This document shows positions 46,030 through 64,000 of a stretch of 64,000 bases of DNA, in pieces. The notes beneath the pieces are model-generated. The model had not been told where the DNA came from and ran no database searches. It saw only the letters and a program-made list of their open reading frames with translations. Position 1 is the first letter of the stretch, and the number at the start of each line of letters is the position of its first letter. Both the position numbers and the translations under genes were made by a program. This DNA is from an uncultured Clostridia bacterium. GTDB taxonomy: Bacteria > Bacillota > Clostridia > Oscillospirales > Acutalibacteraceae. The DNA is taken from NCBI GenBank assembly GCA_947625785.1, contig CANQPS010000014.1, positions 11,241 through 75,240 of the forward strand, in the 5' to 3' direction.

Positions 46030-46978
46030 ATGAATACTGTAACACAAAAGATGAAGTTTCGTCAATTCCTAATCAAATATTCTGAGAAGCATGGAGTGAC
46101 AAAGGCAGTAATTAAATATGATGTTACTCGTCAATATATTTATTTCTGGAAAAGAAGATATGACGGGACCCCTCAATCGCTGGCAGATCGTTCACATAGA
46201 CCAAAATATCATCCTAAACAGCATACAGAGGAAGAAATAAAGCTGATAAAGGATATGAGGAAAAGAAATCCTCACGCAGGACTTGTAGTATTCTGGGTCA
46301 AGCTGCGATTAAGAGGATATAAAAGAAGCATAACAGGACTTTACCGTATGCTCCGGAAGTTCGGAGAACCTCGCCAAACACCTCCGAACCCAAAATACAT
46401 TACAAAGCCTTATGAGAAAATGCTGTATCCGGGACAAAGAGTACAGGTAGATGTCAAAGTTGTACCAACTGCTTGTATTGTAGGTGATGCTAAAGGAGAG
46501 AAGTTCTATCAATATACAGCCATTGATGAATACTCCCGGTTCAGATATATTGAGGCTTTTAAAGAGCAGAACACATATTCTTCAAAAGTTTTTCTTGAGC
46601 ATATGGCTCAAGGCATTTCCTTTTAATATCGAGTGTGTTCAGACTGACAACGGTTTTGAGTTTACCAAGAGGTTTGGCGGCAGTAAAAATCCAAAAGATA
46701 TGACACTCTTTGAGGTATACCTCAAAGAAAAGGGAATAAGACACAAGCTGATCAAGCCCTACGCTCCAAGACACAATGGTAAGGTGGAGCGGTCAAATAG
46801 AAAAGACAATGAATACTTCTATGCAACACACTCTTTCTACTCGTTTGAAGATTTTGAAAAGCAATTAGCTGTTCACAGCAGAAAATATAATAACTTCCCT
46901 ATGCACCCTTTGAATTGGAAATCCCCTTGTCAGATTATACGTCATTTCTTGCAAACAGGCGAATTTGATGCTATTTAA
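46030..46978 (+). pseudogene. IS481-family-like DDE transposase, frameshifted between catalytic D residues
   Basis: Two overlapping ORFs (46030..46626 and 46484..46978) carry an N-terminal HTH and an rve core (QYTAIDEYSRF / QTDNGFEF / KPYAPRHNGKVER). The frame switches near 46600 (…EHMAQGISF* versus …LKAFPFNIECVQTD). Confidence 0.7.
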
Positions 46979-47650
46979 AAAATCTGCCTTTCCAGTTCCT
47001 TGCGATCGGCTGTTTTCCTGTGCGCAGCCATAGCGCACAGTTCCCGAAGCAGTTTCCCGTCGTCCCGAAGTGCCAGATTCGCCTTTTCCCGAATGTCCTG
47101 CAGGATGGTTTCCTGTGCTTCTTTGCTCGGCAGGAAATGGTGGGTGCAGTATTCCCGTCCGTTGTTCCGATAGGTACGGCAGCAGTAGAATTCTCGGTTT
47201 TTCCCTTTTTTCTTACTGTTGCACGTAATGGATTTTCCACAATCGGCACACTTCAGATATCCGTTTAGAATGCCCTTGGGAATGAGGTCGACATTCTGAT
47301 GCCGCACAGAGATGGTTCGCTGCACCGTTTCAAAGGTTTCCTTGTCGATGATCGGCTCGTGTATTCCTTCCACGATCACCAGATTCTCTGGTTCGCTCCG
47401 AATCCGCTTTTTCAATTCGAATGATACGGTGGGATGCTTGTTGCCTACGATGGCTCCGGTATAGGCTCGGTCATGCAGCATCTTACGAATCGTTTGCTCC
47501 GGCCACACATACTTGTCCCGAACGGGCTTTATGCAGTTGTATCCCAGCTCTGCATAACGGTAGGACGGACAAAGCACCTGTTCGTTTTTCAGTATCGTCC
47601 CGATGGCTCTGCCGCCGTAGTCTTGCAGAGCAAGGTCGAAGATACACCGC
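46975..47650 (-). pseudogene. Large serine recombinase, C-terminal fragment (recombinase domain, zinc-ribbon, coiled coil). The N-terminal catalytic domain is missing and the gene is truncated by the IS3-family element.
   Basis: YVWPEQTIRKMLHDRAYTGAIVGNKH is a recombinase-domain motif and GYLKCADCGKSITC...CC...C is a zinc-ribbon recombinase motif. The frame runs as nonsense into the IS inverted repeat at 47651. This segment is about 55% GC against about 30% for the host. Confidence 0.7.
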
Positions 47651-47725
47651 ACTGATGGTGTATAATAAAACTTGACACAATCCAAACAATCAAAGTATAT
47701 TAAAATAAGAAGCAGAGTGTCAAAA

Positions 47726-48055
47726 ATGGGAACAGGAAAACAGTATGATGAGGAATTTAAGAAGCAGGCTGTAAAGCTTGCAAAAGAAATAGGAAACACA
47801 GCGGCTGCCAAGGAGTTGGGTGTTCCGAAAGGAACATTAGGAACATGGATGGGTAAAGCAAGAGCAGGAGAAATAGACACAGGATCAGGAACTCGCACTC
47901 CCGAGGAGTCGCTGAATCTTGCACAGCAGCTGCAAGCAGCAAATAAGCGAATAAAAGAACTGGAAAAGAAAAACCGAGAGTTAGAAGAGCTGAATGAGTT
48001 TCTGGAGGAGGCTTCCGCTTTTTTCGCTGCGAGCCGTCGGAAGTCGGGAAAATAG
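47726..48055 (+). CDS. IS3-family transposase OrfA (HTH plus leucine zipper)
   Basis: MGTGKQYDEEFKKQAVKLAKE...LGVPKGTLGTWM followed by a coiled-coil ELEKKNRELEELNEFLEEA. Confidence 0.8.
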   Translation: MGTGKQYDEEFKKQAVKLAKEIGNTAAAKELGVPKGTLGTWMGKARAGEIDTGSGTRTPEESLNLAQQLQAANKRIKELEKKNRELEELNEFLEEASAFFAASRRKSGK

Positions 48056-48362
48056 AGCGATTAAAGTTCATTGCATTGAAGACCGACGACGGCAGAATCA
48101 CCGGGAAGATCAGCTTTTATTGCAGAGCCTTGGAGGTTAGCAGATCAGCATTTTATGACTACCTTGCTTGCAGGGATAATCCATGGAAATACGAACCGCT
48201 TGCGAAAGAAATGATGAAAATACATAACGAGGATAAGTATAACGACTGCTACGGTAGAGAGCGTATGTATATGGCTCTAATGCAAAAGAAAGGAGCAGGA
48301 GAAATCAATATTGACATACTGAAATTATCAATAACCCTTGACACATTTTCCTCGAACAAATT

Positions 48363-48998
48363 TCAAGCAGCAATGCTCAAACTTTCGTAGTAGTGCTTTC
48401 TCTTGATAGCCGGAGGCAGACCACCGTTTGCAGTACAAATTCTTCTGTTTGCCCAATAGCTCATATAATATCTCCAAATTATTGTTTTCAATTCTGACAT
48501 CGTGTAATTATCAGACTTATCGCTGCGGCTGTAAAACAGCTCCTCTTTCATTCTTGCCCACATACTTTCACACCGTGCATTGTCATGACATCTGCCGCCG
48601 GCACTGTTCATGCTTTGAATTATTCCGTATCTTTGTATTACAGCACGATATTCCGCACTTGTATACTGACTTCCTCTATCAGAGTGTATTATGCACCCCG
48701 AAATATCCGGATAAGCCTTTTTTGCATTTTCAATGGTATGACAGCAAAGCAAAGCCCTCATATTATCTTCAATGACAAGCCCCAGCGGCATTAAATCAAA
48801 ACAGTCAAATATTGCTGAAACATAGATTTTTCCATCTTTGGCTTTGAGCTCACTGATGTCGGTTACTGCTTTCTCAAGAGGCTTCTCAGCACTAAAATCA
48901 CGCTTTAGAAAATCGTCAGACTTGCGTGCTTCACGGTCAGCTTTAGTGATTCCGTTCGGTTTCCTGCGAGGCTTGTGGATAAGTCCAATCTGCTCCAT
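48363..48998 (-). pseudogene. IS3-family transposase OrfB segment carrying the integrase core (DDE), on the opposite strand from orfA
   Basis: RKVMEQIGL...KAVTDISE...HSDRGSQYTS...HDNARCES (D, D, E). It continues where the plus-strand orfB N-fragment (…YGRERMYMALMQKKGAGEIN) stops. Confidence 0.75.
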
Positions 48999-49091: not shown

Positions 49092-50018
49092 TCAGATATT
49101 CTTTTTATTAAGATTAAGAATAATAATTGCTGATAAAATAAGAAGCATACCAACGATCTTTTCTATTGTTAAGCTTTCATTAAAAAATAATAATCCGACT
49201 ATTGCAGCTACAAACGGCTCAATAGTTGCAAAAACAGCGGCTTTTCCTGCCTCTGTTTTTTTAAGTCCGATCGTGTACAGCAAAAATGGCAGAACTGTAC
49301 ATATCAAAGCAAGAGCGATCCCTGAAATTATTGCCTTAAATGAAAACATAAGTGAAATATTATTCGTTATTTTTGAAATTGGTATTGCAAATACTGATGC
49401 AATGATAAAAGTATATGCAGTAATTGTCAGCGAATCATATTTATCCACAAGGTACTTCCCGAAAATACTATACAAAGCATATCCCAATCCTGCACCGAGA
49501 CCAAGTAAAACCGCTTTGTAAGAAATATTATCTGATGAAGATAAAACACCTGTTACCAACATCAATCCGACAAATGTCATAATAAGAGAAATAATTTTCT
49601 TTTTTGTGATTTTTTCCTTGAATAGAAACAGTGATATAATCATAACAAAAATCGGAGCAGTATAAAGCAGTAATGCAGGCAGTGACGAACCGCCAATAAC
49701 ATTTATCGCTTCAAAATAGCACAGATTAAAGAAAACTATGCTGCAAACTCCCGTTCCTATAAAAAGGGGAATGTCTTTTATTTTAATTTTAAGTTTTGAT
49801 TTATCTTTGACAAGGATCAGCAGCACCATCAGAATTGCAGATATCGTTACTCTTATACAGACGATTTCCATTGAATTAAAGCCGATTTCCTGAAGTACCC
49901 TTACAAATAAAGAAATTATTCCCCAGAGTATCCCTGCAACAATTATACAAACCGAATTTTTAATAATATCAGCTCCTTTATATTTTTTATTTTTTATTTC
50001 ATTACAAATAATTGTCAA
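49092..50018 (-). CDS. EamA/DMT-family transporter
   Basis: Ten TM helices in two EamA-like repeats. Confidence 0.75.
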   Translation of the reverse strand: MTIICNEIKNKKYKGADIIKNSVCIIVAGILWGIISLFVRVLQEIGFNSMEIVCIRVTISAILMVLLILVKDKSKLKIKIKDIPLFIGTGVCSIVFFNLCYFEAINVIGGSSLPALLLYTAPIFVMIISLFLFKEKITKKKIISLIMTFVGLMLVTGVLSSSDNISYKAVLLGLGAGLGYALYSIFGKYLVDKYDSLTITAYTFIIASVFAIPISKITNNISLMFSFKAIISGIALALICTVLPFLLYTIGLKKTEAGKAAVFATIEPFVAAIVGLLFFNESLTIEKIVGMLLILSAIIILNLNKKNI

Positions 50019-50091: not shown

Positions 50092-52233
50092 TTAAACAGT
50101 TACGTTAATAAATGCTGAAATATGTTCAGCAAGATTATCAAGTCCCATTGAGCTTGTATTAACGCATAAATCATAATATTGTGGGTCACCCCATACATAT
50201 GATGAATAATAATTGAAATAGTATTCTCTGTTCTTTTCCTTTTTGTATATAAACGATTTAGCCTCTGATTCAGACATATTCTCTCTTTGTGCTACATGTT
50301 TTATTCTGTCTTCAGAATTTGCAGAAACAAATATATCAATTGTATTGATGCCTTCTTTATTCAGAACATAGTTAGAACATCTTCCGACAAAAATACAAGG
50401 TGACATTTTTGCAAGCTGGAGAATAATATTCGACTGAATAAGAAACATTCTGTCTGTTGTTGAAGCATCATATTCTTTAGCAGCATACATTGTGCCCGAT
50501 GTCAAAGCGTGAAGAAGCTCTTTTCTAGGAGTTTCTTCTCCTTTTCTTATTTCTTTTTCAGTAAGTCCAAGTTCCATTGAGGCATATTTTATCATATCTT
50601 CATCATATACCGGAATATCCAGCTTTTTACCTAAAATACGAGCAAGCTCTCTGCCTCGGCTTCCATACTGTCTGCCGAATGTGATAATAAGTTTTTCACC
50701 GGTTTTTTCTTCATATTCCTTACCGCCTGAATATTGCGTAACATCAATATCAGATTCAATAGACGGAATTATCTCATAACCGGCCTGTTTTTCATATCCC
50801 GGAATAATCCAATCTTTATTAGCAGAAACGCCAAGATATTCGTCAGAAAATTCAGAAGTAATTTCTTTCTGCGGATATTTTTTAATGTACCATGTTTTCA
50901 TTAATACAAGATATATGATAAATCCTAAAGGAAAACCAATAAAATATCCGAAACTCGAAATAATATTTGCAAAAACAGTACCAACCATCAATGCGATAAG
51001 TCCGCATACATTAAAGCCGCCGCTGTATTTATACTGTCCGTCGCTTTTGAATAGCTCCTGAACGTTTAATCTTCTTTTTCTGATTATATAATAATCAGCA
51101 ATCATAATACCTGCAATTGCAGAAAGGATCGAGCCGAAATATCCGAGATATGTATAAAGCTGATTTAGTATATTCCAGGGCTGAACAAGACAGCCGATAA
51201 GACCTGCAATGATAACCGCAGCCTTATATGGAAGATTCCACCTTGCACCTGCATTTGTAAAACACATTGCAGGCGGCACAAGGTTAGCTGCTGTATTTGT
51301 TGACCATTGTGCAAGTATAACCATAACGAGCAGAATAACAAGAGTTACACCCTTTGCCTGTCCCTGAATAACTTCAACAGGATTCCAGTTCCCTGTTGTT
51401 TTATATGAAATCGCACCGATCACAGCTATAAAAGCTTCAATTATCGGAAGTGTTGCAAACTGTGGGATCCAGTTGTTTTTATTTCTCTTAAACCAGCTTT
51501 TTTCACCCATTGGTGCTTTCAAACTTCTTGTCATATTCGGAATATCAGCCGCAAGTGCTGCCCACATACCCATATTTGAACTCATGGTAACAAACCAGTA
51601 ACTTGCAGACGGCTGTGCAGGATGGTAACCTAAAATCGAAAAATTCTGCAAAGCAGCAATGTTGTTTACTTTATAGAACATCCAGCAGGTAATAAGGATG
51701 ATACATGGAGCTGCAATTGAAGAAAATTTGTCAATTGCCTTTAAGCCGAACATTGTATTTATAATTTGCAAAGCAGCAAATATTACAAACCATAAAAACC
51801 AGTTATCTATACCAAATAACGCAATTGTAAAATAGTTTATGGCTGTTGAACCTATATACGTATTTATTCCGAACCAGCATGATGCGATTATGCCTCGTAC
51901 CACAGCAGGAATATGTACACCCTTTATTCCAAACGGTGCTCTCAGATATGTTGCAAATGATAAACCATGTTCTACACCGATATCACCCGTAAGACTTCCT
52001 ATTGCTGCTATAATCAGATTAGCAACAAATGTAGCTGAAGCAACACCTATGACTCCCATCTTTTCAATGCCGCTTGCGCCAAAGCTGAAAACAGAAATTA
52101 CAATAGCCATACCTACCCAAATGTTGGCAAATCCTAATCCTGACAAAGTCCTTTTTCTTGAAGTAACAGGTATTACATCATCTGAAATAAGTGCATTATT
52201 CAAAGCCTTATTTTTTTCTTTCATAATTATCAC
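50092..52233 (-). CDS. NCS1-family nucleobase/hydantoin-type cation symporter fused to a C-terminal cytidylate-kinase-like (PF13189-type) domain
   Basis: Residues 1-~460 form a 12-TM NCS1 permease (cytosine/allantoin/hydantoin permease-like). A ~60-aa linker is followed by LIITFGRQYGSRGRELARILGKKLDIPVYDEDMI...FVGRCSNYVL..., typical of the cytidylate kinase-like family. It is a single uninterrupted 713-aa ORF. Confidence 0.7.
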   Translation of the reverse strand: MIIMKEKNKALNNALISDDVIPVTSRKRTLSGLGFANIWVGMAIVISVFSFGASGIEKMGVIGVASATFVANLIIAAIGSLTGDIGVEHGLSFATYLRAPFGIKGVHIPAVVRGIIASCWFGINTYIGSTAINYFTIALFGIDNWFLWFVIFAALQIINTMFGLKAIDKFSSIAAPCIILITCWMFYKVNNIAALQNFSILGYHPAQPSASYWFVTMSSNMGMWAALAADIPNMTRSLKAPMGEKSWFKRNKNNWIPQFATLPIIEAFIAVIGAISYKTTGNWNPVEVIQGQAKGVTLVILLVMVILAQWSTNTAANLVPPAMCFTNAGARWNLPYKAAVIIAGLIGCLVQPWNILNQLYTYLGYFGSILSAIAGIMIADYYIIRKRRLNVQELFKSDGQYKYSGGFNVCGLIALMVGTVFANIISSFGYFIGFPLGFIIYLVLMKTWYIKKYPQKEITSEFSDEYLGVSANKDWIIPGYEKQAGYEIIPSIESDIDVTQYSGGKEYEEKTGEKLIITFGRQYGSRGRELARILGKKLDIPVYDEDMIKYASMELGLTEKEIRKGEETPRKELLHALTSGTMYAAKEYDASTTDRMFLIQSNIILQLAKMSPCIFVGRCSNYVLNKEGINTIDIFVSANSEDRIKHVAQRENMSESEAKSFIYKKEKNREYYFNYYSSYVWGDPQYYDLCVNTSSMGLDNLAEHISAFINVTV

Positions 52234-52308
52234 TTCCTTATAAATTTAAGAGGACGTCTGCTGCTTAATGAGCAGACGTTCTCAATTTTTTAAGGGATAG
52301 AAGACTGC

Positions 52309-54093
52309 TTATTTTACCTTTCTTGCCTCTGCTGTGGCTGAATAATTGACCTTCATTGTAATCGGGTCAATAATTACTCCGTAAGAATCCTTTGCATCTT
52401 CAATTGTTGTGAAGTCATCAAGAACATCGCTGAGAACAAGCTCGGGATCTCTTTCAAAAGGATCTCCATATCCGCCGCAGGGAGTACGGATCTGAAGTAT
52501 ATCATTTACATTAAATTCTTCATCTGAAAGTTTTGAAGGAAGAGAAACTGCATTGTCTGAGCCTGGATTTTTAGTCATGCTTGCAGAATGACCGTCACTT
52601 CCTCCGAAAATACCCTTCGGTGCTTCAATATGTCTGTCACCTTCACAGGTTACAGTACCTTCTGAAAGGAATCTTGTTTCTCTTATGATACCTAAACCGC
52701 CTCTCCACTTACCCGGAGCAACAAGCTCAGGATTGAGTTCATAGCGTTCAATACGAAGTGGATAGTGCCACTCGATCTCCTCGATCGGAACGTTTCTTGT
52801 ATTAGCAACAAGGGCATCACATGAGTCAATGGCATCTTTGCCGTAACGGCCGCCGTATGAACCCTCATCAACTTCAAGATATACCCAGTATTCATCCTTG
52901 TTTTTATCAAAGCCGTTATAGCTTACAAAGTGAATATGAGCGCTTGTACCTGCGGAAACTCTTTCAGGCATTACATCAGCAAGTAAACGCATTACGCAGT
53001 CAGCCAAAAGATTTGCTTGATTGAATCTTGAGAATGATGCACGGGGGAAATTCGGATTGAAAATACATCCCTTCGGAGCAATAACCTTAACAGGTCTTCT
53101 CATACCGTCATTTTGAGGGATATACTGCTGATAAACAGCATCATCAAGGAACAAGGCGTGCATAATGTAGCTGATAGACGTCATTGTCGTACCCTCAAAT
53201 GATGCATTGAACGCTGTATAAACCTCATCTGCACTTCCTGTAAGGTCAATTGTAACTTCATCGCCTTTGATGGTAGTTGTTGTGCAGACCTTTAAGTGCT
53301 TGTCAAGATTTACGCCGTCATCATCAAGATATCCTTCCGCATAATATGTTCCGTCAGGGACTTTTGCGATAGCATTTCTGAGCATTCTTTCAGAATAATC
53401 CATCCAGTCCTCAATTGCCGAATAAACTGTTTCCATTCCGTATTTATCAAGAAGCTCTGTAAATCTTACAATGCCGTGCTTTGCAGAAGCGATCATAGCT
53501 TTCAGGTCATTTTCATTCATTGAAGGAGTACGGACATTATCAAGGATCATTCTCCATAACTGCTCATTCTTCTGTCCTTTTTCATAGAGCTTAATTGCAT
53601 AGTAAATTCTCGTTTCAGCATAAATATCTCTTGCAAAAACATCCATGCCGGGAGTATGCGAACCATTATCAAGCAAATGTGCCTGAACACATGAAAAGCT
53701 TATAAGCTTACCTTTATAAAAAATAGGGATACAAATATGAAGGTCAGGTGAATGTGATGTACCATAGTATGGATGATTATGAATAAAAACGTCACCCTCA
53801 TGAATATCTTCGAGTTTCCATCTTGTAAGAATGCCCTTTACATTGCCTCCTATAGAGCCAACGTGCATAGGTGTACTTTCACTTTCACAAAGCTGTCTTC
53901 CTGTGATATCAATTATACCACAGCCTATATCCTCTGATTCTCTAACGATACTTGAATATGACATTCTGTACAATACCATACCCATTTCCTGAGCGATCAT
54001 TTTAAACGAGCCGCCCAAAACCTGTAAAGTTACAGGATCGACCTCTACTCTTGGAATATTTAATCCTTCGATCATCTTAGCCATATTTATCAT
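52309..54093 (-). CDS. Hydantoinase B/oxoprolinase family protein (N-methylhydantoinase B-like)
   Basis: 594 aa. The N-terminus LNIPRVEVDPVTLQVLGGSFKMIAQEMG fits the Hydantoinase_B family. Confidence 0.85.
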   Translation of the reverse strand: MINMAKMIEGLNIPRVEVDPVTLQVLGGSFKMIAQEMGMVLYRMSYSSIVRESEDIGCGIIDITGRQLCESESTPMHVGSIGGNVKGILTRWKLEDIHEGDVFIHNHPYYGTSHSPDLHICIPIFYKGKLISFSCVQAHLLDNGSHTPGMDVFARDIYAETRIYYAIKLYEKGQKNEQLWRMILDNVRTPSMNENDLKAMIASAKHGIVRFTELLDKYGMETVYSAIEDWMDYSERMLRNAIAKVPDGTYYAEGYLDDDGVNLDKHLKVCTTTTIKGDEVTIDLTGSADEVYTAFNASFEGTTMTSISYIMHALFLDDAVYQQYIPQNDGMRRPVKVIAPKGCIFNPNFPRASFSRFNQANLLADCVMRLLADVMPERVSAGTSAHIHFVSYNGFDKNKDEYWVYLEVDEGSYGGRYGKDAIDSCDALVANTRNVPIEEIEWHYPLRIERYELNPELVAPGKWRGGLGIIRETRFLSEGTVTCEGDRHIEAPKGIFGGSDGHSASMTKNPGSDNAVSLPSKLSDEEFNVNDILQIRTPCGGYGDPFERDPELVLSDVLDDFTTIEDAKDSYGVIIDPITMKVNYSATAEARKVK

Positions 54094-54112: not shown

Positions 54113-56188
54113 TCAAGCATTGATATCAATTACGATGATACCGTATTCATTGACCTTACCTACGCAGTCAGGTTCAACAACAATAGTTGTATCCATCTGA
54201 TTTATAATTGCAGGTCCCAAAATTATATCTCCAGCCTTAAACTTAGCTCTGTCATATACCTTTGTTTCAAAGTGTACAGGCTTTCCTTCAATCTTGAATG
54301 TAACATTTCTTGTATCGGTTACTGCTCTTTCAACATCACCATTTCCGATCTCGATCTTGATCGGTTCAAGCTCTTCTATGCTGCCTGTACCGACAACACG
54401 AATATTAACAATTTCAACAGCAACGTTCCTGTATGAACGACCGAACTGCTGCTTGTGGATCTGATGGAATGATTCCTTGAGTTTTTCAATTGTATCTTCT
54501 GTTACTTCACCGCCGATAACAGGAACTCTCATTTCATAGCCCTGACCTTCGTAACGACAGTCGGCATAACGAATAATTGTAATATCATCCTCTGACATAT
54601 TATCTTCAACAAGCTTGTCATGAGCTTCTTTTTCCAATTCGGCAAAATCATCTGTAAGAATACTGTAATCAACTTTTGTGGAAAGCTGCATTTCTGTCTT
54701 GGAGAAATCATACATAAGGTCTGTATTAACAAGACCTACAGCACATAATGCACCGGGATTTACAGGAATAATAACATTCTTCATACCGAGTTCTCTTGCA
54801 ACCGAGCAAGCGTGAAGTGATCCGGCGCCGCCGCACGCAAAGAGGGCAAACTCACGAGGGTCAAAACCACGTCTTACACTTTCCATTTCGATTTCCTGGA
54901 TCATATTATTGTTCATTACATCAATAATGCCAAGCGCTGCTTCGTCAAGAGTCTGTCCAAGCGGTTCACCGATCTTAGTCATAATAGCCTTTTCAGCAAG
55001 TTCGGGCTTGATTTCCATACGTCCGCCGAGAAGCTTTGTACCAAGTCTTCCAAGAATAATATTAGCATCTGAAACAGTAGGATCTGTACCGCCTCTGTCA
55101 TAGCAGGCAGGTCCCGGAACAGCGCCTGCACTCTGAGGACCTACTCTGAAGAATCCGCCCTCATCAATATAAGCCATCGAACCGCCGCCTGCTCCGATCG
55201 TACCTACATCAATCATAGGAACCATTGCAGAATATCCGCCTACTTTAGTATCAAGGATATGTTTCATGCTGGGCTTTAAATCAGCAAGAACTGAAATATC
55301 TGCTGATGTTCCTCCGATGTCAAGTGTAATTACATTGTTTATATCAGTAAGTTTTGTTGTCCATATCGCACCAAGAACACCGCCGACAGGACCTGAAAGA
55401 AGAAGATTTACAGGCTTTTCCTGAGCAGCTTGAGCTGAAGCAACACCGCCGAAGGACTGCATAAGATGTACTTTTGCCGTATATCCCTGTTCTTTAAGAG
55501 TTTTTTCAAGCTGTTTTATATATCTTGAAGTTGTAGGTCCAATATACGAATTCAACGCTGTTGTTGTAAATCTTTCATATTCTCTGAACTGCGGAAGAAC
55601 CTCGCTGCTGAGTGAAATGTAAACATCAGGATATTCTTCTTTTATGATCTCCTTTACACGCTGTTCATGCGCAGGATTTAAGAATGAGAAAAGAAAGCAT
55701 ACAGATATAGCTTCGATTTTTTCTTCTTTCATCTTTCTTACAGCACTTCTTACCTCATCCTCATTGAGAGGTACAAGTTCTTCACCTGTCGGAGCAATAA
55801 CACGTTCTGTAACTCCATATCTGTCACGTCTTTTGGCAACAGGGTATTTCTGCCACGGAATATCTTCAACAATAGAAAAGTTAGTAGGTCTTTTATGACG
55901 GGCGATATGAATGATATCTCTGTAACCCTTTGTTGTGATCATACCTGCTCTGCATCCCTTGTGTTCAAGAACCATATTTGTGGCAATTGTTGTACCATGG
56001 AAGATTTCCTGAATTTCACCATGCGGGATCTCAAGCTTATCACAGATAGCGTTAATACCTTCCATCATACCTATTGAAGGATCATGAGGAGTTGTTGAAG
56101 TTTTATAAACCTCTATTTTTCCGTCATCATCAACATAAATAAAGTCAGTAAACGTACCGCCTACGTCAACACCAATTCTTTTCATCAA
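54113..56188 (-). CDS. Hydantoinase A/oxoprolinase family protein (N-methylhydantoinase A-like, ATP-dependent)
   Basis: 691 aa. The N-terminus MKRIGVDVGGTFTDFIYV fits the Hydant_A_N plus Hydantoinase_A domains. Confidence 0.85.
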   Translation of the reverse strand: MMKRIGVDVGGTFTDFIYVDDDGKIEVYKTSTTPHDPSIGMMEGINAICDKLEIPHGEIQEIFHGTTIATNMVLEHKGCRAGMITTKGYRDIIHIARHKRPTNFSIVEDIPWQKYPVAKRRDRYGVTERVIAPTGEELVPLNEDEVRSAVRKMKEEKIEAISVCFLFSFLNPAHEQRVKEIIKEEYPDVYISLSSEVLPQFREYERFTTTALNSYIGPTTSRYIKQLEKTLKEQGYTAKVHLMQSFGGVASAQAAQEKPVNLLLSGPVGGVLGAIWTTKLTDINNVITLDIGGTSADISVLADLKPSMKHILDTKVGGYSAMVPMIDVGTIGAGGGSMAYIDEGGFFRVGPQSAGAVPGPACYDRGGTDPTVSDANIILGRLGTKLLGGRMEIKPELAEKAIMTKIGEPLGQTLDEAALGIIDVMNNNMIQEIEMESVRRGFDPREFALFACGGAGSLHACSVARELGMKNVIIPVNPGALCAVGLVNTDLMYDFSKTEMQLSTKVDYSILTDDFAELEKEAHDKLVEDNMSEDDITIIRYADCRYEGQGYEMRVPVIGGEVTEDTIEKLKESFHQIHKQQFGRSYRNVAVEIVNIRVVGTGSIEELEPIKIEIGNGDVERAVTDTRNVTFKIEGKPVHFETKVYDRAKFKAGDIILGPAIINQMDTTIVVEPDCVGKVNEYGIIVIDINA

Positions 56189-56284: not shown

Positions 56285-57022
56285 TTACTTGTCCAGCTGT
56301 CTTTCGTGTTTTGTGTAAACAGAAGGATCAATACCTTCAAGATATTTAACAACTTCGTCAACAGGAACAACATCACAGAACTTAGCTTCCATATCAAAAA
56401 GGTTCCATTCAACAACACCGGGAACTCTGTCACCAACTGTTCCTTCAGGAACGATCGTCTTGAATCCGTAGCCTGTGGAATCCATAACTGTATATCTTAC
56501 GCAGGCACAAGCTGTAGCGCCCATAACAATAAGAGTATCTACACCAAGGAAATTAAGCGTCTGAGCAAGGTGTGTGCCAAAGAAGTTGGAAGCAAACTTC
56601 TTATGTATAACCGGTTCTTCCAGAAGAGGTTTGATCTTAGGGTCTATCTCCATCCATTCACTGTTAATATCAAGAGTGTTAAGCGGAATTTTTTCATCCC
56701 ATCTCGGAAGATCCATCTGATTTTTGCCAAGGAAACCTGTAGTTGTGTGAAAAATCGGAACACCTGATTTTCTTCCTGCTTCAAGAACCTTGAGAGCCTC
56801 TGCACAAACTTCTTCAGAGTGATTGCACGTAAACGGGTGACCTTCGCTCATCCAAGCCTTAGCCATATCAACTGTAGTAATTGCAGGAGCCTTACCGAAT
56901 CCCATCTTACGCATGAATCCACGCTCTTTATATACTTCTCTTGCCTCAGCAAAAGCCTTCTTTAAAAGTTCCTCATCAAATTCATAATGATCAACAAATT
57001 TAAAATCTTTATTCTCAGCCAT
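56285..57022 (-). CDS. Isochorismatase-family cysteine hydrolase (N-carbamoylsarcosine amidase / RutB-like amidase)
   Basis: TLIVMGATACACVRYTVMDSTGYGFKTIVPEGTVGDR carries the catalytic Cys in the isochorismatase-like fold. The start at 57022 has an agagagg RBS. Confidence 0.75.
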   Translation of the reverse strand: MAENKDFKFVDHYEFDEELLKKAFAEAREVYKERGFMRKMGFGKAPAITTVDMAKAWMSEGHPFTCNHSEEVCAEALKVLEAGRKSGVPIFHTTTGFLGKNQMDLPRWDEKIPLNTLDINSEWMEIDPKIKPLLEEPVIHKKFASNFFGTHLAQTLNFLGVDTLIVMGATACACVRYTVMDSTGYGFKTIVPEGTVGDRVPGVVEWNLFDMEAKFCDVVPVDEVVKYLEGIDPSVYTKHERQLDK

Positions 57023-57155
57023 AATAACATACCTCTCTAACAATTATTTTTTATAACGTCAGTTACTGTCTGAGAATTAAAATCCGGATTTACTTTCTCT
57101 GTAACTGTCTTAATTATAGCAGACAAAAAAAATGAAAATCAACAAATTTTACGAT

Positions 57156-57202
57156 TTGTCAATACTGTTTCATTGACAAATAATTGTACATATGGTACAA
57201 TT
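57156..57202 (+). promoter_or_regulatory. Near-consensus sigma-A promoter (TTGACA-17-TACAAT) embedded in two perfect palindromes, TTGTCAAT-N8-ATTGACAA and AATTGTAC-N5-GTACAATT, upstream of the regulator gene
   Basis: Read directly from the sequence. The -35 lies at 57174-57179 and the -10 at 57197-57202. The palindrome arms are exact reverse complements. Confidence 0.6.
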
Positions 57203-57247: not shown

Positions 57248-57278
57248 ATATGAGGTGATAAATGTGAAATCAAGGAAT

Positions 57279-58745
57279 ATGTCAACATTTGGTTATATAG
57301 TAAATTATCTGAATATCAAGACTTCTCTGATGGCAAAATTCATTCACGTTGATTCAAGTCTGATAAGTAAATGGAAATCAGGTCAAAGACAGATCAATGA
57401 GGAGTCGGTCTACTTTAATGATGTCGTTTCGTTTATAATGAATTATGATGAAAATAATTGTTATTCAACGCTGAAAAAGGTATTGACGGAACTGTATCCT
57501 TATGAAAAAATATTGGATAAAAATAATATTGAATCAATGCTGAAATATGCACTTTGCGGCAATATAAAAAACGAGTCAAATATTCTTATGGGAAATCTTA
57601 AAACAATTCCTATAGTTTTTTTCAGCGGCATTAAAGGTCAGCAAGAAGCAATCATGAAATTGTTTGATTCAATTGAAAAGACAGAAACCGGTAACCTTAC
57701 ATTTATTGATACGCTTGCTTTTAAGTGGATATGGATCGATTCGGAATTTTCCAAAAACTTCACAAACAGACTCATCAAACTTCTTAATCGTGGATATCAT
57801 GCTGTATTTGTTATAAGATATTCCTCGTCCAAGGAAAATTTTCACAAGTTTTTTGATTCCTGCATTTCAATTATCTTTAACAAAAATGTAAGATGGTATT
57901 ATGTTCAGTATTATGATGAACCTATTGTCGGATTATCAATTATTCTGTATAACCATATATTGTCAATTATAGGAATGTTTTCAAATATTTTTAAAATGAC
58001 AACAATGGTATTTAAAGACAAAGAAATAGTAATGAATCATTATGAGGTAGCTAAGGAATTTACGGAAAGAAGTATACCGTTATTTAACAAATCCGAACCA
58101 TTTTCACTGCCTGATAAAATTTTAAACATACATAGTCTAAGTATAAAAAAAGACTTTTATGCTTTTCTTCCGACTCCCGCAATGATCGCAACAAATGTTC
58201 ATAACATAAGCGATGTGCTTAAGGAAAATAATATTGACGAAAACTCTGAACTGTTTGCACAAGTACTTGAACTTAACGGATTTTTCAGGCATCATTCGGG
58301 AATTAACAATGAAGATTCGGTTCTCAAAAAGAAATATTTTATCTTTCATATAGAAGAACTCATTGAAAATGCTGAAAAAGAAGTTATCGGAAGCAACAGC
58401 CTTACGCTTGCTTGCGGCAAAGAAATAAATATAAAAAAAGAATACTTTGCAAACGAACTGAAAACACTTGCTGAAATTCTTATGGAAAATTCTGACTTTA
58501 ATATTGCTCTTGTATCAGAAAAAGATAATCTTATGCTTCCTAATATGAATTGTTGGTGTCTGGAAGGCGGCTTTCTGATGCAGATGCGTGATGACGGATT
58601 TTATATCTGCGAAGAAAGCACCATCATCTCTACAGCATTTAATGCTCTTGAACGCTGCATTCATAAGATCCCGCCTGAAAGGAAGGATAAGGAGTACGTT
58701 TCAAAATATTTAATTGAACTGGCTGATGAAATAATGAAACAGTAA
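57279..58745 (+). CDS. XRE-family HTH transcriptional regulator with a large uncharacterised C-terminal domain, divergent from the hydantoinase operon
   Basis: The N-terminal FGYIVNYLNIKTSLMAKFIHVDSSLISKWKSGQRQI matches the XRE HTH pattern. An aagga RBS precedes the ATG at 57279. It is 489 aa. Confidence 0.65.
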   Translation: MSTFGYIVNYLNIKTSLMAKFIHVDSSLISKWKSGQRQINEESVYFNDVVSFIMNYDENNCYSTLKKVLTELYPYEKILDKNNIESMLKYALCGNIKNESNILMGNLKTIPIVFFSGIKGQQEAIMKLFDSIEKTETGNLTFIDTLAFKWIWIDSEFSKNFTNRLIKLLNRGYHAVFVIRYSSSKENFHKFFDSCISIIFNKNVRWYYVQYYDEPIVGLSIILYNHILSIIGMFSNIFKMTTMVFKDKEIVMNHYEVAKEFTERSIPLFNKSEPFSLPDKILNIHSLSIKKDFYAFLPTPAMIATNVHNISDVLKENNIDENSELFAQVLELNGFFRHHSGINNEDSVLKKKYFIFHIEELIENAEKEVIGSNSLTLACGKEINIKKEYFANELKTLAEILMENSDFNIALVSEKDNLMLPNMNCWCLEGGFLMQMRDDGFYICEESTIISTAFNALERCIHKIPPERKDKEYVSKYLIELADEIMKQ

Positions 58746-59175: not shown

Positions 59176-60747
59176 ATGGGAATTTATTTAAATCCGGATA
59201 ATACTGATTTTTATAATGCTGTGAATCATTCGCAGATATATGTTGATAAAACTAATCTAATTGGGTATACAAATAAGATTTTGTTTGGAGAGCAAAAGTA
59301 CATTTGCGTAAGCCGCCCAAGAAGATTCGGAAAGTCAATGGCAGCCAATATGCTGACAGCATATTATAGCCGTGGCTGTGATTCAAGAGAATTGTTCAGC
59401 AACTTGAAAATTGTAAAGGCTGATTCTTTTGAAAAGCACCTGAATAAATACAATGTTATTCATTTGAGCATTCCACAATTTATGGATGAAGCTGAAAATG
59501 TTCAAGAAATGGTGCAGTTTATTAAGGACGATGTAATGGAGGAACTGCTAAGTTCATTTCCGGATGTCCGGATGCCAAGCCGTAAAACATTGGAAAAAGT
59601 GTTTGCAACAATATTTAATACAACAAAAATTCCCTTTATTTTCATAATTGACGAGTGGGATTGTATTTTCAGGGAACACAAAGAAGATAAAGCCGCACAG
59701 GAAGCGTATCTTAAATTTTTGAGGAATTTACTTAAAAATCAGCCGTATGCAGCGCTTGTTTATATGACCGGTATACTGCCAATTAAAAAGTACGGCGATC
59801 ATTCAGCACTCAATATGTTTGATGAGTATTCAATGACAAACCAAATGGCTTTAGCAGAATTTACAGGCTTTACGGAACAAGAAGTAAAAGCCTTATGCGA
59901 AAAATACGGAATGTCATTTGAGGAAACAAAACGTTGGTATGATGGATATGATTTAAAGGGACTGTCGGTTTATAATCCTCGTTCTGTGGTAATGGCAATG
60001 ATGAGCCGTGATTTTGATAATTATTGGACAAAAACAGAAACCTATGAATCGCTTAAAAAATATATTCAAATAAATAGTTTCGGATTAAAGGAAATTGTAA
60101 AAAGATTGATTGCCGGTGAACACCTGCCGATGAATCCGGATAAATTTCAAAACGATATGACCACATTTAACAGTGCGGATGATGTTTTAACATTGTTGGT
60201 TCATCTCGGTTATCTGACATTCGATTTTGGCACGAAAACAGTATGGATTCCCAATAGTGAGGTGCAACGGGAATTTATCAATTCCATTGAGGACGGCGGT
60301 TGGGAAGAAGTTATGAAAGCAATAAGAATTTCAGATGAACTTCTGACAGCAACTCTTAACTGCAATGAAGAAAAAGTCGCAATGATAATAGAACAAGTAC
60401 ACCGTGAAAATACATCCATTCTTCAATATAATAATGAAAATTCACTGTCATGCGTACTTTCCCTTGCATATTATTCTGCCAAAAAAGATTATGCGATGTA
60501 TCGTGAACTGCCAAGCGGAGACGGGTTTGCAGATTTAGTATTTGTACCGAGAAGCAATTGTCGGGCTTCGGCGTTTATAGTTGAGTTAAAGTGGGATAGA
60601 TCGGCAGAAACTGCAATAGATCAGATAAAGCAAAAAAAGTATGCAGAATGTCTGAAAGATTATTCCGGAGAAATTTTACTTGTCGGGATCAATTACAACA
60701 AGGACGATAAACGACATACTTGTAAGATTGAAAAAATCACTAAATAA
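59176..60747 (+). CDS. Predicted AAA-ATPase (PF09820-like N-domain) fused to a PD-(D/E)XK nuclease-family C-domain (DUF1703-like)
   Basis: The N-terminus reads YVDKT...ISRPRRFGKS. The C-terminal GDGFADLVFVP...FIVELKW is a PD-(D/E)XK motif. Strong RBS ggaggtg. Confidence 0.65.
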   Translation: MGIYLNPDNTDFYNAVNHSQIYVDKTNLIGYTNKILFGEQKYICVSRPRRFGKSMAANMLTAYYSRGCDSRELFSNLKIVKADSFEKHLNKYNVIHLSIPQFMDEAENVQEMVQFIKDDVMEELLSSFPDVRMPSRKTLEKVFATIFNTTKIPFIFIIDEWDCIFREHKEDKAAQEAYLKFLRNLLKNQPYAALVYMTGILPIKKYGDHSALNMFDEYSMTNQMALAEFTGFTEQEVKALCEKYGMSFEETKRWYDGYDLKGLSVYNPRSVVMAMMSRDFDNYWTKTETYESLKKYIQINSFGLKEIVKRLIAGEHLPMNPDKFQNDMTTFNSADDVLTLLVHLGYLTFDFGTKTVWIPNSEVQREFINSIEDGGWEEVMKAIRISDELLTATLNCNEEKVAMIIEQVHRENTSILQYNNENSLSCVLSLAYYSAKKDYAMYRELPSGDGFADLVFVPRSNCRASAFIVELKWDRSAETAIDQIKQKKYAECLKDYSGEILLVGINYNKDDKRHTCKIEKITK

Positions 60748-62328: not shown

Positions 62329-63051
62329 CTATTTACTGGGATTTTCGGGGGCTTTGAGTGAAACTGTATATAATGTATTGTACTTCTTGAAAGTGCGCCA
62401 AGTCATATCGTCCCATTTTCTAAGCTGCGCCCAAAGTTCGGGAAAATCCGAATAGAGAGTCCGCAGTTCACCAAACAGCTGTAAAGGACAGCACCAACAG
62501 GATACCCTCCCAAACTTATCATACAGACCGCCCCAATCGTAGCCGCGCTCCTTGCAGTAAGCAAGACAGTCAGCCTCAGTCATGCCCCATTCCACAAGCG
62601 GCAGACGAACGTTCGGTCGGCTGTTGCAATGGCGTGTGACACGTTCCGTTTCATCGGCGGCGATCCCGACATACTCGACAAGGTCGTATTCATCGTTCAG
62701 TTTACGCAGATATTTCTCACGAGGTACGGTCTTGAGAAGATTGGTACACCACCGCATCAGCGGTCCTGCCCAACTGTATCCGAGTTTGCCTTGAAGTTCG
62801 GGTTTCTTTCGCTTGATAGGTTTTTCGGAAAACAGATACTCAAAGGTGTACTCGCTGCGTACTGTCGTAACTTTAATTCCCGTGTTTTTCTCGACTTTTC
62901 GGATATGCCCATAAAGCTGAGGGAACTCAGGCCCGGTATCGCAGAAAAGAACTATATCCACAGGCATATTTTCTTCAAGCATACGGAGCAGCATTGCCGT
63001 TGAATCCTTGCCGCCGCTGAGTGAAACAACATGAAGTGCGGGTTTACTCAT
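62329..63051 (-). CDS. Phosphoadenosine-phosphosulfate reductase family protein (PP-loop ATPase, phage-type)
   Basis: It has the SGGKDS PP-loop (VVSLSGGKDSTAML) and a C-terminal cysteine cluster CWCC. Confidence 0.75.
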   Translation of the reverse strand: MSKPALHVVSLSGGKDSTAMLLRMLEENMPVDIVLFCDTGPEFPQLYGHIRKVEKNTGIKVTTVRSEYTFEYLFSEKPIKRKKPELQGKLGYSWAGPLMRWCTNLLKTVPREKYLRKLNDEYDLVEYVGIAADETERVTRHCNSRPNVRLPLVEWGMTEADCLAYCKERGYDWGGLYDKFGRVSCWCCPLQLFGELRTLYSDFPELWAQLRKWDDMTWRTFKKYNTLYTVSLKAPENPSK

Positions 63052-64000
63052 TGCCCTCCACCTCTTTCACAAGTTCGGAGTAGGGTATCTTCTCACCGTT
63101 CCGCACCACATACACACCATCCGCATTTCCCGTATCCTCAACATACCTGTGCAGGATTACAGACGCATATTTTTCGTCAAGTTCCATCGTGTAACAAATG
63201 CGGTTCGTATGCTCACAGGTCATGAGCGTTGAACCACTGCCACCAAAGGTATCAATGACGATTGCATTTTCCTGACTTGAATTTCCAATCGGATAAGCAA
63301 GCAGGTCAAGTGGCTTTGAAGTCGGATGGTTCTTATTCTTCTTCGGCTTATCGAAATTCCAGATGGTAGTCTGACTTCTGCCTGCATTCTTGCTCCAGTA
63401 GTGCTTTCCATTTTGTAAAAAGCCATAAAGGACTGGTTCATGCTGCCATTGATAGTCGGAGCGTCCGAGCACCAGACTATCTTTCACCCAGATACAGCAG
63501 CCTGCGAGGTGAAAGCCTGCGTCAATGAATGCCTTGTGGAAGTTAAGTCCCTCGGTGTCAGCGTGAAACACATAAGCCGAGCCGCCTTTTTCGAGGTGAT
63601 CAGACATATTCTTAAATGCCGAAAGCAGGAAGTTGTAAAATTCCTCGCCCTTGATTGAATCATTCTGTATTTTTAAGCCGCTCGAAGATGTGAACGAAAC
63701 TCCGTAAGGCGGATCCGTAAGAATGAGATTTGCTTTGACATCTCCCATAAGAGCGGAAACATCATCTGCGCTTGTGGCGTCGCCGCACATCAGCTTGTGT
63801 CTGCCGACCGTCCAGATATCACCACGCATAACAAAAGCCGCCTTTTCCAAAGCGGCTGACAGGTCGTAATCATCATCTTTCGCATCGCTGTCGGTATCGC
63901 TGCCGAACAGGTCCGCAAGTTCTTTTTCGTCAAACCCCGTAAGCGAAACATCAAAATCCTCTCCTTGCAGGGATTCTATCTCCACTCGCAGAAGTTCTTC
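63044..64000 (-). CDS. DNA methyltransferase (N6-A/N4-C, DPPY class), probably with an N-terminal ParB-like domain. The 5' end lies beyond the window.
   Basis: It has ILTDPPYGV motif IV and FxGSGST motif I (DTFGGSGST). The linker LTGFDEKELADL is typical of ParB-methylase fusions. The frame is open to the window edge. Confidence 0.75.
   Translation of the reverse strand, partial: EELLRVEIESLQGEDFDVSLTGFDEKELADLFGSDTDSDAKDDDYDLSAALEKAAFVMRGDIWTVGRHKLMCGDATSADDVSALMGDVKANLILTDPPYGVSFTSSSGLKIQNDSIKGEEFYNFLLSAFKNMSDHLEKGGSAYVFHADTEGLNFHKAFIDAGFHLAGCCIWVKDSLVLGRSDYQWQHEPVLYGFLQNGKHYWSKNAGRSQTTIWNFDKPKKNKNHPTSKPLDLLAYPIGNSSQENAIVIDTFGGSGSTLMTCEHTNRICYTMELDEKYASVILHRYVEDTGNADGVYVVRNGEKIPYSELVKEVEGNE

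Follow-up and report, generated by a model that had tools for sequence, protein, structure and literature searches.

A PF13189 domain fused to an Mhp1-like NCS1 permease in gut Firmicutes: a candidate ligand-sensing regulator of predicted hydantoin uptake

Introduction

Among described systems, the gene studied here comes closest to Mhp1 (PDB 2JLN/4D1A), an NCS1-family permease from Microbacterium liquefaciens that takes up hydantoins together with Na+ and is likewise encoded in a hydantoin-utilisation gene cluster. In Mhp1, W117 stacks on the hydantoin while N318 and N314 form hydrogen bonds with it, and the protein ends about 20–30 residues after TM12, with no soluble domain. To our knowledge, no bacterial member of the NCS1 family with a fused soluble domain has been reported. 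Sensing domains are known on other secondary transporters, such as CBS domains on MFS proteins, OpuA, MgtE and ClC, STAS domains on SulP/SLC26, RCK/TrkA_C domains on K+ and YidE/YbjL transporters, and nucleotide-binding C-terminal domains on the LeuT-fold CCC and KimA transporters. In the GlnK-AmtB system, the regulator gene adjoins the transporter gene.

At E <= 1e-3, the cytidylate kinase-like family PF13189 has 5,894 representative clusters. Its two solved members, 3HDT ("putative kinase", Clostridium symbiosum) and 3FDI (Eubacterium ventriosum), are stand-alone soluble proteins of about 200 residues deposited as structural-genomics entries, and our search of the literature on PF13189 returned no ligand for any member and nothing on function. 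A PF13189 domain is also found at the C-terminus of DUF6198/YczE membrane proteins, which are listed in RefSeq as "cytidylate kinase family protein". Here, we describe a gene in which this domain follows an NCS1 permease, and we compare it with these systems.

Results

Architecture of the fusion gene

We analysed a stretch of 64,000 nucleotides from an uncultured Clostridia bacterium (assembly GCA_947625785.1, contig CANQPS010000014.1), hereafter called the window. The initial annotation of this DNA had reported an NCS1 transporter fused in-frame to a cytidylate kinase-like domain, and we detected both domains well above their cut-offs in one open reading frame. In particular, the profile search matched PF02133 to residues 22–425 (E 3.1e-49; score 168 bits, cut-off 23.5) and PF13189 to residues 516–694 (E 1.7e-47; score 162 bits, cut-off 28); the latter match covers nearly the whole profile (positions 1–175 of 176) and places the C-terminal region in the family that had been proposed. 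The frame (50092–52233, minus strand) is continuous over 713 codons with no stop or frame break around codon 470, where a frameshift check had been advised, and the extension past TM12, earlier put at about 250 codons, measures about 258. The GTG start assigned mechanically at 52233 falls within a Shine-Dalgarno sequence, and the true start is probably the ATG at 52224, giving 710 residues. The database protein 100% identical to the fusion (P0001) is exactly 710 residues long. Residue numbers below follow the 713-residue numbering of the GTG-started frame. The features of the gene are:

50092–52224, minus strand: fusion gene (NCS1 permease, linker, PF13189), 710 residues plus stop, from the probable start
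52233–52238, minus strand: Shine-Dalgarno sequence AGGAAG, seen in the letters themselves; the ATG at 52224 lies 8 nt downstream
50869–52224, minus strand: NCS1 (Mhp1-like) 12-TM permease domain, residues 4–455
50698–50868, minus strand: acidic linker of 57 residues, residues 456–512
50095–50697, minus strand: PF13189 domain (cytidylate kinase-like, NMP-kinase fold), predicted cytoplasmic, residues 513–713
50647–50676, minus strand: degenerate P-loop GRQYGSRGRE, residues 520–529, as first annotated

All the hydrophobic segments of the protein lie within residues 38–445, with no TM segment past 445. The end of TM12 is cytoplasmic in the Mhp1 structure, and by homology the C-terminal domain, which follows TM12, is predicted to be cytoplasmic as well. 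Over its first 12 or so residues the linker can be aligned with Mhp1's own C-terminal tail, and the linker motifs FPQxE, YLG, W, GYE and GG.EYE are kept in the fused clade. In the full-length AF2 model the linker had a pLDDT below 50 and no confident contact was found between the permease and the C-domain; the NCS1 half was poorly modelled, with only close relatives covering it, and its helices were consistent with a 12-TM core.

The permease half and its predicted substrate

For the N-terminal 455 residues, the solved protein closest in sequence was Mhp1 (6e-52), to which the permease aligns over Mhp1 residues 12–466, from TM1 through TM12 into the C-terminal tail. Assignment to the NCS1 family (PF02133, TC 2.A.39) follows from the profile match, the 12-TM LeuT-type core and the substrate- and Na+-site residues; the NCBIfam subfamily model TIGR00800 scored 195 bits, under its strict 353-bit cut-off. 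Residues W120, W224, N313 and N317 match the Mhp1 hydantoin-site residues W117, W220, N314 and N318, so that the stacking Trp and both hydrogen-bonding Asn are conserved, and A308, S311 and T312 match the Na+-site residues A309, S312 and T313. The roles of these Mhp1 residues have been described (PMC4195764), and Na+ coupling of the fusion permease is predicted from their conservation.

Three positions differ from Mhp1, with Val for Q42, Met for G219 and Asn (N124) for Q121. Any side chain at G219 of Mhp1 would clash with a bulky 5-substituent (PMC4195764), and the Met found there fits a small hydantoin; taken together, the three differences predict that the substrate is smaller than the 5-aryl hydantoins that Mhp1 transports. 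Given that Mhp1 is the nearest relative, that the binding residues are kept and that the gene lies in a Hyu operon (described below), the substrate is likely (N-methyl)hydantoin and not cytosine, most probably N-methylhydantoin, a bacterial breakdown product of creatinine.

Assignment as a cytosine permease (CodB) was considered and rejected, since the score with NF008241 was 72 bits (cut-off 326) and CodB (7QOA) was matched at 1e-06, far from the value for Mhp1.

The PF13189 domain

The C-domain was modelled by AF2 with a pLDDT of 90.5 and has the NMP-kinase fold of 3HDT and 3FDI. As family-invariant features of PF13189 we considered the P-loop Arg, the G-S-x-G, YD and VGR motifs, and a Trp and a Tyr near the C-terminus, and all of these residues are present in the fusion (R521, G524, S525, G527, Y543, D544, G617, R618, R669, W681 and Y687). 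The P-loop consensus of the family is [GS]-R-[QE]-[FY]-G-S-G-G-[RHK]-[ED], in which the position of the Walker Lys is Gly in 128 out of 129 representatives and that of the Ser/Thr is Glu or Asp. Because the whole family is without the Walker Lys-Ser/Thr pair, catalysis by the C-domain is unlikely, and it is probably not a phosphotransferase. The fused clade differs from the family of 3HDT and 3FDI in carrying a clade-specific Arg (R526) at the first Gly of the GSGG motif. Finally, about 140 of the 150 best PF13189 representatives were 190–260 residues long, in line with the earlier statement that these proteins are mostly small and stand-alone.

A bona fide cytidylate kinase (EC 2.7.4.25) was also rejected as an assignment. 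The C-domain shares 13–18% identity with true CMP kinases (PF02224/TIGR00017/TIGR02173) and does not have their Walker A motif GxxGxGK[ST]; TIGR02173 scored 31 bits against a cut-off of 102, and PF02224 was not reported.

Recurrence and selection

The architecture search that had been suggested recovered the fusion, uninterrupted, in all of the 120 best protein clusters (71–100% identity), a count that is to be read as at least 120. It was present in 15 species-representative genomes (at least 15 species of gut Firmicutes), and Butyricicoccus porcorum carries the same fusion on a 2.99-Mb contig. Permease, linker and C-domain are each under purifying selection, with median dN/dS values of 0.067, 0.225 and 0.103, respectively, at saturated synonymous sites, and the C-domain evolves faster than the permease (59–82% against 76–89% identity). 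No stand-alone orthologue of the fused C-domain clade was detected among 1.84 billion representatives. The nearest stand-alone relatives (P0125, P0126, P0127 and P0129) are on short contigs whose neighbouring genes are uninformative, and they yielded no "split" ancestor of the fusion.

These data bear on whether two adjoining genes were merged by a sequencing, assembly or frameshift error. We found nothing in favour of such an artefact; the one MAG with a frameshift (L022) is broken near codon 650, within the C-domain and not at the junction. The recurrence of an identical architecture in independent clusters, in the species genomes and on a multi-megabase contig excludes an artefact, and both the purifying selection on the linker and the lack of a stand-alone orthologue speak against it, so that its probability is negligible.

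The gene module around the fusion

The fusion gene was found only within a module of HyuAB and amidase genes (N-carbamoylsarcosine-amidase homolog, HyuA, HyuB, sometimes P-II, fusion, EamA), which was conserved in 18 out of 18 loci examined. An origin of the region in a defence system or a phage was considered and set aside, since the module is metabolic and is kept in chromosomal contexts. In the window it comprises, besides the fusion:

49092–50018, minus strand: EamA-family (DMT) transporter, which travels with the module
52250–52283, no strand assigned: stem-loop of 13 bp between hyuB and the fusion gene, followed by a T-run on the strand opposite to the operon
52309–54093, minus strand: hyuB, hydantoinase B/oxoprolinase-family subunit
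54113–56188, minus strand: hyuA, hydantoinase A-family subunit (ATP-dependent cyclic-amide hydrolase family)
56285–57043, minus strand: isochorismatase-family amidase; best solved relative N-carbamoylsarcosine amidohydrolase 1NBA (1.3e-58)
57113–57201, no strand assigned: divergent pair of sigma-70-like promoters (consensus matches only)
57255–58745, plus strand: divergently transcribed protein of about 500 residues, kept with the module at 32–50% identity

The amidase probably starts at the ATG at 57022, giving 245 residues as in its relatives. The two promoter matches would serve the operon (57142–57113, minus strand) and the divergent gene (57173–57201, plus strand). The protein of about 500 residues has an HTH-like N-terminus (SLISKWKSGxR) and had no match in Pfam or NCBIfam with the threshold relaxed to E = 1; it is a candidate regulator of the operon.

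One operon thus combines the two-subunit hydantoinase HyuA/HyuB, a homolog of N-carbamoylsarcosine amidase and a permease of the hydantoin type, as in hydantoin clusters, and this context points to the likely substrate of the permease. Conversion of N-methylhydantoin into sarcosine by way of N-carbamoylsarcosine has been documented for clostridia (PMC4417704). The partner enzyme of the fusion belongs by family to the ATP-dependent HyuAB type, unlike that of the Mhp1 system; against an ATP-dependent step, ATP independence has been reported for the anaerobic N-methylhydantoinase from Clostridium FS41 (PMC4417704). The EamA transporter may export the product, for instance sarcosine.

The best NCBIfam match of HyuAB was caprolactamase, under its cut-off. 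Enzymes of the HyuAB family also act on other cyclic amides, such as caprolactam and 5-oxoproline, so a hydantoin as the substrate of the module is probable, not proven.

The loci of three lineages have a P-II gene of canonical appearance just upstream of the fusion gene, which recalls GlnK-AmtB, as does the ammonia that the module would yield. The transporter here is an NCS1 permease and not Amt, however, and P-II is absent from the window and from most loci.

PF13189 on or beside other membrane proteins

PF13189 was found fused at the C-terminus of MFS, MMPL and DUF6198 proteins in addition to NCS1. The DUF6198 fusion was present in at least 118 clusters from two phyla (Firmicutes and Bacteroidota) and shows the same order as ours, an N-terminal membrane domain followed by PF13189. 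Its membrane partner is a small protein of no assigned function. The DUF6198 fusion is ancient and varied, with identities reaching down to 33%; the NCS1 fusions make up a single narrow clade, in which identity is at least 69%. MFS relatives at 42–50% identity carry CBS instead of PF13189, C-terminally as judged by protein length. We also found a tandem PF13189-PF13189 protein (P0139).

Among the immediate neighbours of stand-alone PF13189 genes, proteins with at least 6 TM segments were enriched (24/132 against 13/308, p = 6e-6), in 80 loci of one subclade (25-sequence alignment) where lineage-specific synteny may inflate the statistics. These transporters, about 18% of the neighbours, were mostly MatE genes lying immediately upstream in the same orientation, and also CitMHS, CstA and AI-2E; pseudouridine synthase was equally frequent (12/101). 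Several of the stand-alone proteins closest to the fused domain had no transporter neighbour.

Discussion

Taken together, we read the fusion protein as a small-hydantoin importer of the Mhp1 type that serves a nitrogen-scavenging module and whose PF13189 tail acts as a ligand-sensing regulator, a reading that we hold to be evenly balanced between right and wrong. The permease would be a Na+-coupled importer, most likely of N-methylhydantoin, and would carry out the uptake step of a horizontally mobile module. HyuAB would then open the imported ring at the cost of ATP, the N-carbamoylsarcosine-amidase homolog would free NH3 and CO2, and sarcosine may leave through EamA. The PF13189 domain gained by the permease would bind a small molecule with a phosphate group, such as a nucleotide, and pass its signal through the conserved acidic linker joined to TM12, so that transport would be tuned to the state of the cell, for example to the ATP supply that HyuAB needs.

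We propose ligand binding and a regulatory effect from the domain architecture. The initial annotation had suggested that the domain gates or regulates uptake, and this part gains indirect support from the purifying selection, the missing Walker Lys-Ser/Thr pair, the recurrence on MFS, MMPL and DUF6198 proteins, the CBS domains found in place of PF13189 and the stand-alone copies beside transporters. Like CBS, STAS and RCK, PF13189 is a C-terminal globular domain linked to the last TM helix, at a terminus that is cytoplasmic by homology; it recurs on unrelated transporter folds and alternates with CBS in one MFS subfamily. Its fold is unrelated to theirs, and sensing by PF13189 is our proposal.

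Three other roles were weighed. An active kinase or ATPase could modify the imported substrate or an intermediate, by trapping or channelling, or could energise transport. We regard this as distinctly unlikely, given the Gly at the Walker Lys position and the acidic residue in place of the Mg-binding Ser/Thr in the family, the low TIGR02173 score and N-methylhydantoin offering no obvious phosphoryl acceptor. HyuAB is moreover self-sufficient in known systems. The domain also accompanies exporters (MATE, DHA2 MFS, MMPL) and transporters of unrelated substrates, which does not suit a substrate-specific enzyme and leaves the substrate channelling suggested earlier without support.

The domain could instead be a docking platform that tethers HyuAB, the amidase or P-II to the permease, in a metabolon or a P-II-controlled complex, and senses no ligand of its own. 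The confinement of the fusion to the HyuAB and amidase module, the P-II gene upstream in three lineages and the conserved linker motifs agree with docking, but many transporters with PF13189 have neither HyuAB nor amidase and most fusion-bearing loci have no P-II, so we find this role unlikely. Improbable too is a purely structural role, in which the domain would help the permease to dimerise, to stay stable or to reach the membrane, and would not signal. The tandem protein P0139, the two chains in each of the crystal entries 3HDT and 3FDI, which would fit a domain working as a dimer, and the faster evolution of the C-domain are in its favour. Against it, polar and charged residues around the P-loop and VGR motif (R521, G524, G527, D544, G617 and R618) are invariant throughout the family, which is typical of a ligand site and not of an interface, and Mhp1 works without any such soluble domain. 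A ligand-sensing regulatory role therefore fits best, though unproven.

On a broader scale, PF13189 could be an overlooked and widespread cytoplasmic sensor of secondary transporters, functionally analogous to CBS, STAS and RCK, with a catalytically dead NMP-kinase fold as its scaffold. Its ligand would be a nucleotide or a second messenger, and it would gate NCS1, MFS, MMPL, MATE and YczE-like proteins, fused to them or encoded next to them, and the NCS1 fusion would then be a tractable model, in which N-methylhydantoin uptake by gut Firmicutes is tuned to energy or nitrogen status. We put this wider view forward tentatively, as somewhat less probable than its contrary.

The fusion had first been thought undescribed. 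Our literature search on PF13189, on cytidylate kinase-like domains with transporters and on NCS1 fusions returned no paper describing the architecture; its orthologues are nevertheless already listed in RefSeq and UniProt, and fusions of membrane proteins to PF13189 are common. The conflicting names given there, "cytosine permease" and "Cytidylate kinase", are probably both wrong.

If the sensor role is true, it would give a first function to PF13189, a family with thousands of members, two orphan crystal structures and a misleading "cytidylate kinase" annotation, and would bring a new fold into the short list of regulatory domains acting on secondary transporters. The link between PF13189 and transporters is a first functional lead for this family of unassigned role. 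With this mobile gene module, gut Firmicutes probably import and degrade N-methylhydantoin, which bears on nitrogen salvage and on creatinine turnover in the gut.

The fusion gene and its domains

The initial annotation had read the permease and its C-terminal domain as one uninterrupted gene, and the window indeed contains a single open reading frame of 713 codons without interruption (50092..52233, minus strand). The mechanical start of this frame is a GTG at 52233 located within the Shine-Dalgarno sequence AGGAAG; the ATG at 52224, 8 nt after AGGAAG, gives a 710-aa protein, the exact length of P0001, a database protein 100% identical to the fusion. Both Pfam domains scored far over the curated cut-offs, and the proposed placement of the C-terminal region in the cytidylate kinase-like family was borne out (residues in the 713-aa numbering):

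Residues 22–425: PF02133 (NCS1 permease), E 3.1e-49
Residues 516–694: PF13189 (cytidylate kinase-like), entire profile covered, E 1.7e-47
50647–50676, minus strand: motif GRQYGSRGRE, located in the sequence

All the hydrophobic segments fell inside residues 38–445. The acidic linker comprised 57 residues with the invariant motifs FPQxE, YLG, W and GYE, and its first residues aligned with the native C-terminal tail of the hydantoin permease Mhp1. Mhp1 was also the best solved relative of the permease (6e-52, versus 1e-06 for the cytosine permease CodB). Within NCS1, the fusion protein belongs to the Mhp1/allantoin-permease side, not to that of CodB; it is a PF13189 member as well, and it is not a cytidylate kinase. 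The names given to the Butyricicoccus porcorum orthologue, "cytosine permease" in RefSeq and "Cytidylate kinase" in UniProt, are unsupported in view of these E-values and of the lost Walker Lys.

Among 129 PF13189 representatives, the P-loop consensus was [GS]-R-[QE]-[FY]-G-S-G-G-[RHK]-[ED]: the Walker Lys position was Gly in 128 of the 129 and the Walker Ser/Thr position was mostly acidic, so that the P-loop was rightly called degenerate and this extends to the entire family. Arg 521 and the VGR motif were invariant in PF13189, while position 526 was Arg in the fused clade versus Gly in the family. Judging from these alignments, the loss of the Walker residues and the invariance of Arg 521 and VGR indicate that PF13189 retains a conserved polar pocket and has lost the canonical phosphotransfer machinery.

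Recurrence and origin of the fusion

Both domains were present in all the 120 best matches (71–100% identity) from a collection of 5.8 billion proteins, one of them on a 2.99-Mb B. porcorum contig. When species-representative genomes were scanned, 15 species had the full-length fusion (Ruminococcus/Oscillospiraceae, Porcipelethomonas, Acutalibacteraceae, B. porcorum, Lachnospiraceae and Bulleidia). Median dN/dS was low in the permease, linker and C-domain (0.067, 0.225 and 0.103, respectively; codon alignments of 14 genes, synonymous sites mostly saturated), which argues that all three parts are kept by selection. This recurrence, together with the selection, rules out an artefact. Among 18 loci, a single frameshift was found near fusion codon 650 in a Lachnospiraceae MAG (L022, ~5480–5500), with loss of the last ~65 C-domain residues; local decay or a mistake in assembly would explain it.

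When 1.84 billion representatives were searched exhaustively with HMMER, the clade of fused C-domains formed one full-length 50%-identity cluster, and its next relatives were ~200-aa stand-alone proteins with at most 42% identity, a pattern suggesting that the fusion probably arose by a single, fairly recent event.

The probable hydantoin module and its surroundings

The fusion gene was always found within one module, comprising an isochorismatase-family amidase, HyuA, HyuB, P-II (in some lineages), the fusion and an EamA transporter. The best solved relative of the amidase was N-carbamoylsarcosine amidohydrolase (1NBA, 1.3e-58). In the residue-level alignment with Mhp1, the hydantoin-ring recognition residues W117, N318 and N314 were conserved, as were W220 and the Na+-site residues A309, S312 and T313, while Q121, Q42 and G219 were replaced by Asn, Val and Met, respectively. 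Since any side chain at position 219 would clash with a bulky 5-substituent (PMC4195764), we infer that the substrate would be a small hydantoin. Clostridia degrade N-methylhydantoin via N-carbamoylsarcosine to sarcosine (PMC4417704), and the best reading of the module is uptake and degradation of N-methylhydantoin or hydantoin, with release of ammonia. The occasional P-II genes (GlnB/GlnK-like, PF00543) are compatible with nitrogen control:

L001 (2.99-Mb B. porcorum contig): 7969–8307
L002: 9519–9857
L003: 8779–9117
L016 (B. porcorum BB10): ~7477
L022: ~3055

In three lineages the P-II gene was directly flanked by hyuB and the fusion gene, an arrangement that recalls glnK-amtB; the window and most loci had none. 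A 1.7-kb remnant of an IS5/DUF772-like transposase, in split form (L001 8489–9894), was inserted between P-II and the fusion, and was absent from BB10. In the window, a 13-bp GC-rich stem-loop (52250–52283) separated hyuB from the fusion gene, with a T-run on the non-operon strand; its possible functions are mRNA stability or processing, or termination of antisense transcripts.

The module enzymes were 82–97% identical between different orders. In the window, the module appears to be located at a junction with mobile elements:

46030–48998: IS3-type transposase fragments (HTH_Tnp_1, rve), directly downstream of EamA

GC content was ~0.31–0.40 in the module versus 0.45–0.51 in this region. The enzyme identities across orders, the transposase fragments and a recombinase gene (annotated in the identical contigs L006–L008) together indicate horizontal spread. 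Additional integrase-like ORFs were also found at 46030–48998.

A conserved ~500-aa protein without Pfam or NCBIfam match was usually encoded near the module:

Window 57255–58745, plus strand: divergent from the operon, strong promoter-like site
Homologues: L001 13634–15139; L002 1766–3262; L004 3302–4867

It shared 32–50% identity between loci, with about 90 invariant positions. The N-terminal sequence SLISKWKSGxR is similar to an XRE-type HTH, and the protein may accordingly act as a regulator or sensor of a new type for the pathway. A 523-aa ORF (59176–60747, plus strand; predicted AAA-ATPase_like PF09820 and PD-(D/E)XK nuclease PF08011 domains) adjoined the module also in the identical contigs L006 and L007. 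At the window's end (62329–63985, minus strand), the translations of two overlapping ORFs showed motifs of the PP-loop (SGGKDS) and DPPY methyltransferase-like kinds, which points to an origin from phage or mobile elements.

PF13189 with other membrane proteins

Among the best 150 representatives, PF13189 was also found C-terminally on MFS, MMPL/RND and DUF6198/YczE membrane proteins, and as a tandem duplication. Fusions to DUF6198 are ancient and widely distributed, with at least 118 clusters in Firmicutes and Bacteroidota at identities as low as 33%. The MFS fusion was rare (5 clusters); its relatives at 42–50% identity (599–638 aa) had CBS, a classic adenine-nucleotide-sensing regulator of transporters, as extra domain, placed C-terminally by their lengths. 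P0278, P0281, P0282 and P0283 were such CBS-bearing proteins, all of them MFS efflux transporters of the DHA2 type, found in Gordonibacter and in gut or rumen metagenomes. The exchange of CBS and PF13189 between closest MFS relatives looks like a natural domain swap, which could be put to experimental use.

Around stand-alone PF13189 genes (80 metagenomic loci), proteins with at least 6 TM made up 24/132 immediate neighbours versus 13/308 genes at least 3 positions away (Fisher p = 6e-6), and 19/101 versus 9/232 with redundancy removed (p = 2e-5), although all the loci belong to one subclade, whose conserved synteny may inflate the statistics. Most of these neighbours were MatE genes that immediately preceded PF13189 on its own strand (gaps −3 to about 90 nt), and this order, transporter then PF13189, matches that of the fusions; CitMHS, CstA, AI-2E and Asp-Al_Ex/TrkA_C also occurred. 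The association was partial (about 18% of neighbours), and pseudouridine synthase was equally frequent (12/101, redundancy removed). This RluD-like enzyme (PseudoU_synth_2 and S4), a neighbourhood unrelated to transport, directly preceded PF13189 in 12 of 61 non-redundant loci:

Pseudouridine synthase–PF13189 loci: L028, L030, L035, L036, L040, L041, L048, L052, L064, L085, L104

Those stand-alone proteins most closely related to the fused C-domain were encoded on short contigs, with no transporter neighbours there.

Role of the C-terminal domain

PF13189 accompanies importers as well as exporters, and their substrates are unrelated, which makes a substrate-specific enzymatic role unlikely; a general cytoplasmic regulatory domain is the most economical explanation. 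Less probable rival roles would be residual catalysis, dimerisation or stability, and docking of HyuAB or P-II. In the full-length AF2 model the permease half and linker were too weak for any docking to be seen. The searchable literature yielded no paper on PF13189 function and no description of it as a transporter-associated module. The initial annotation had been aware of no description of the NCS1::PF13189 architecture: we likewise found no description in the searchable literature, but the sequences are already public under conflicting single-domain names.

The C-terminal part probably works like the fused cytoplasmic sensors of other transporters (CBS, STAS, RCK, and the C-terminal domains of some LeuT-fold transporters), although the fold differs from CBS, STAS and RCK types. 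We tentatively propose, as a possibility with somewhat less than even chances, that PF13189 is a general, hitherto unrecognised sensor domain of secondary transporters.
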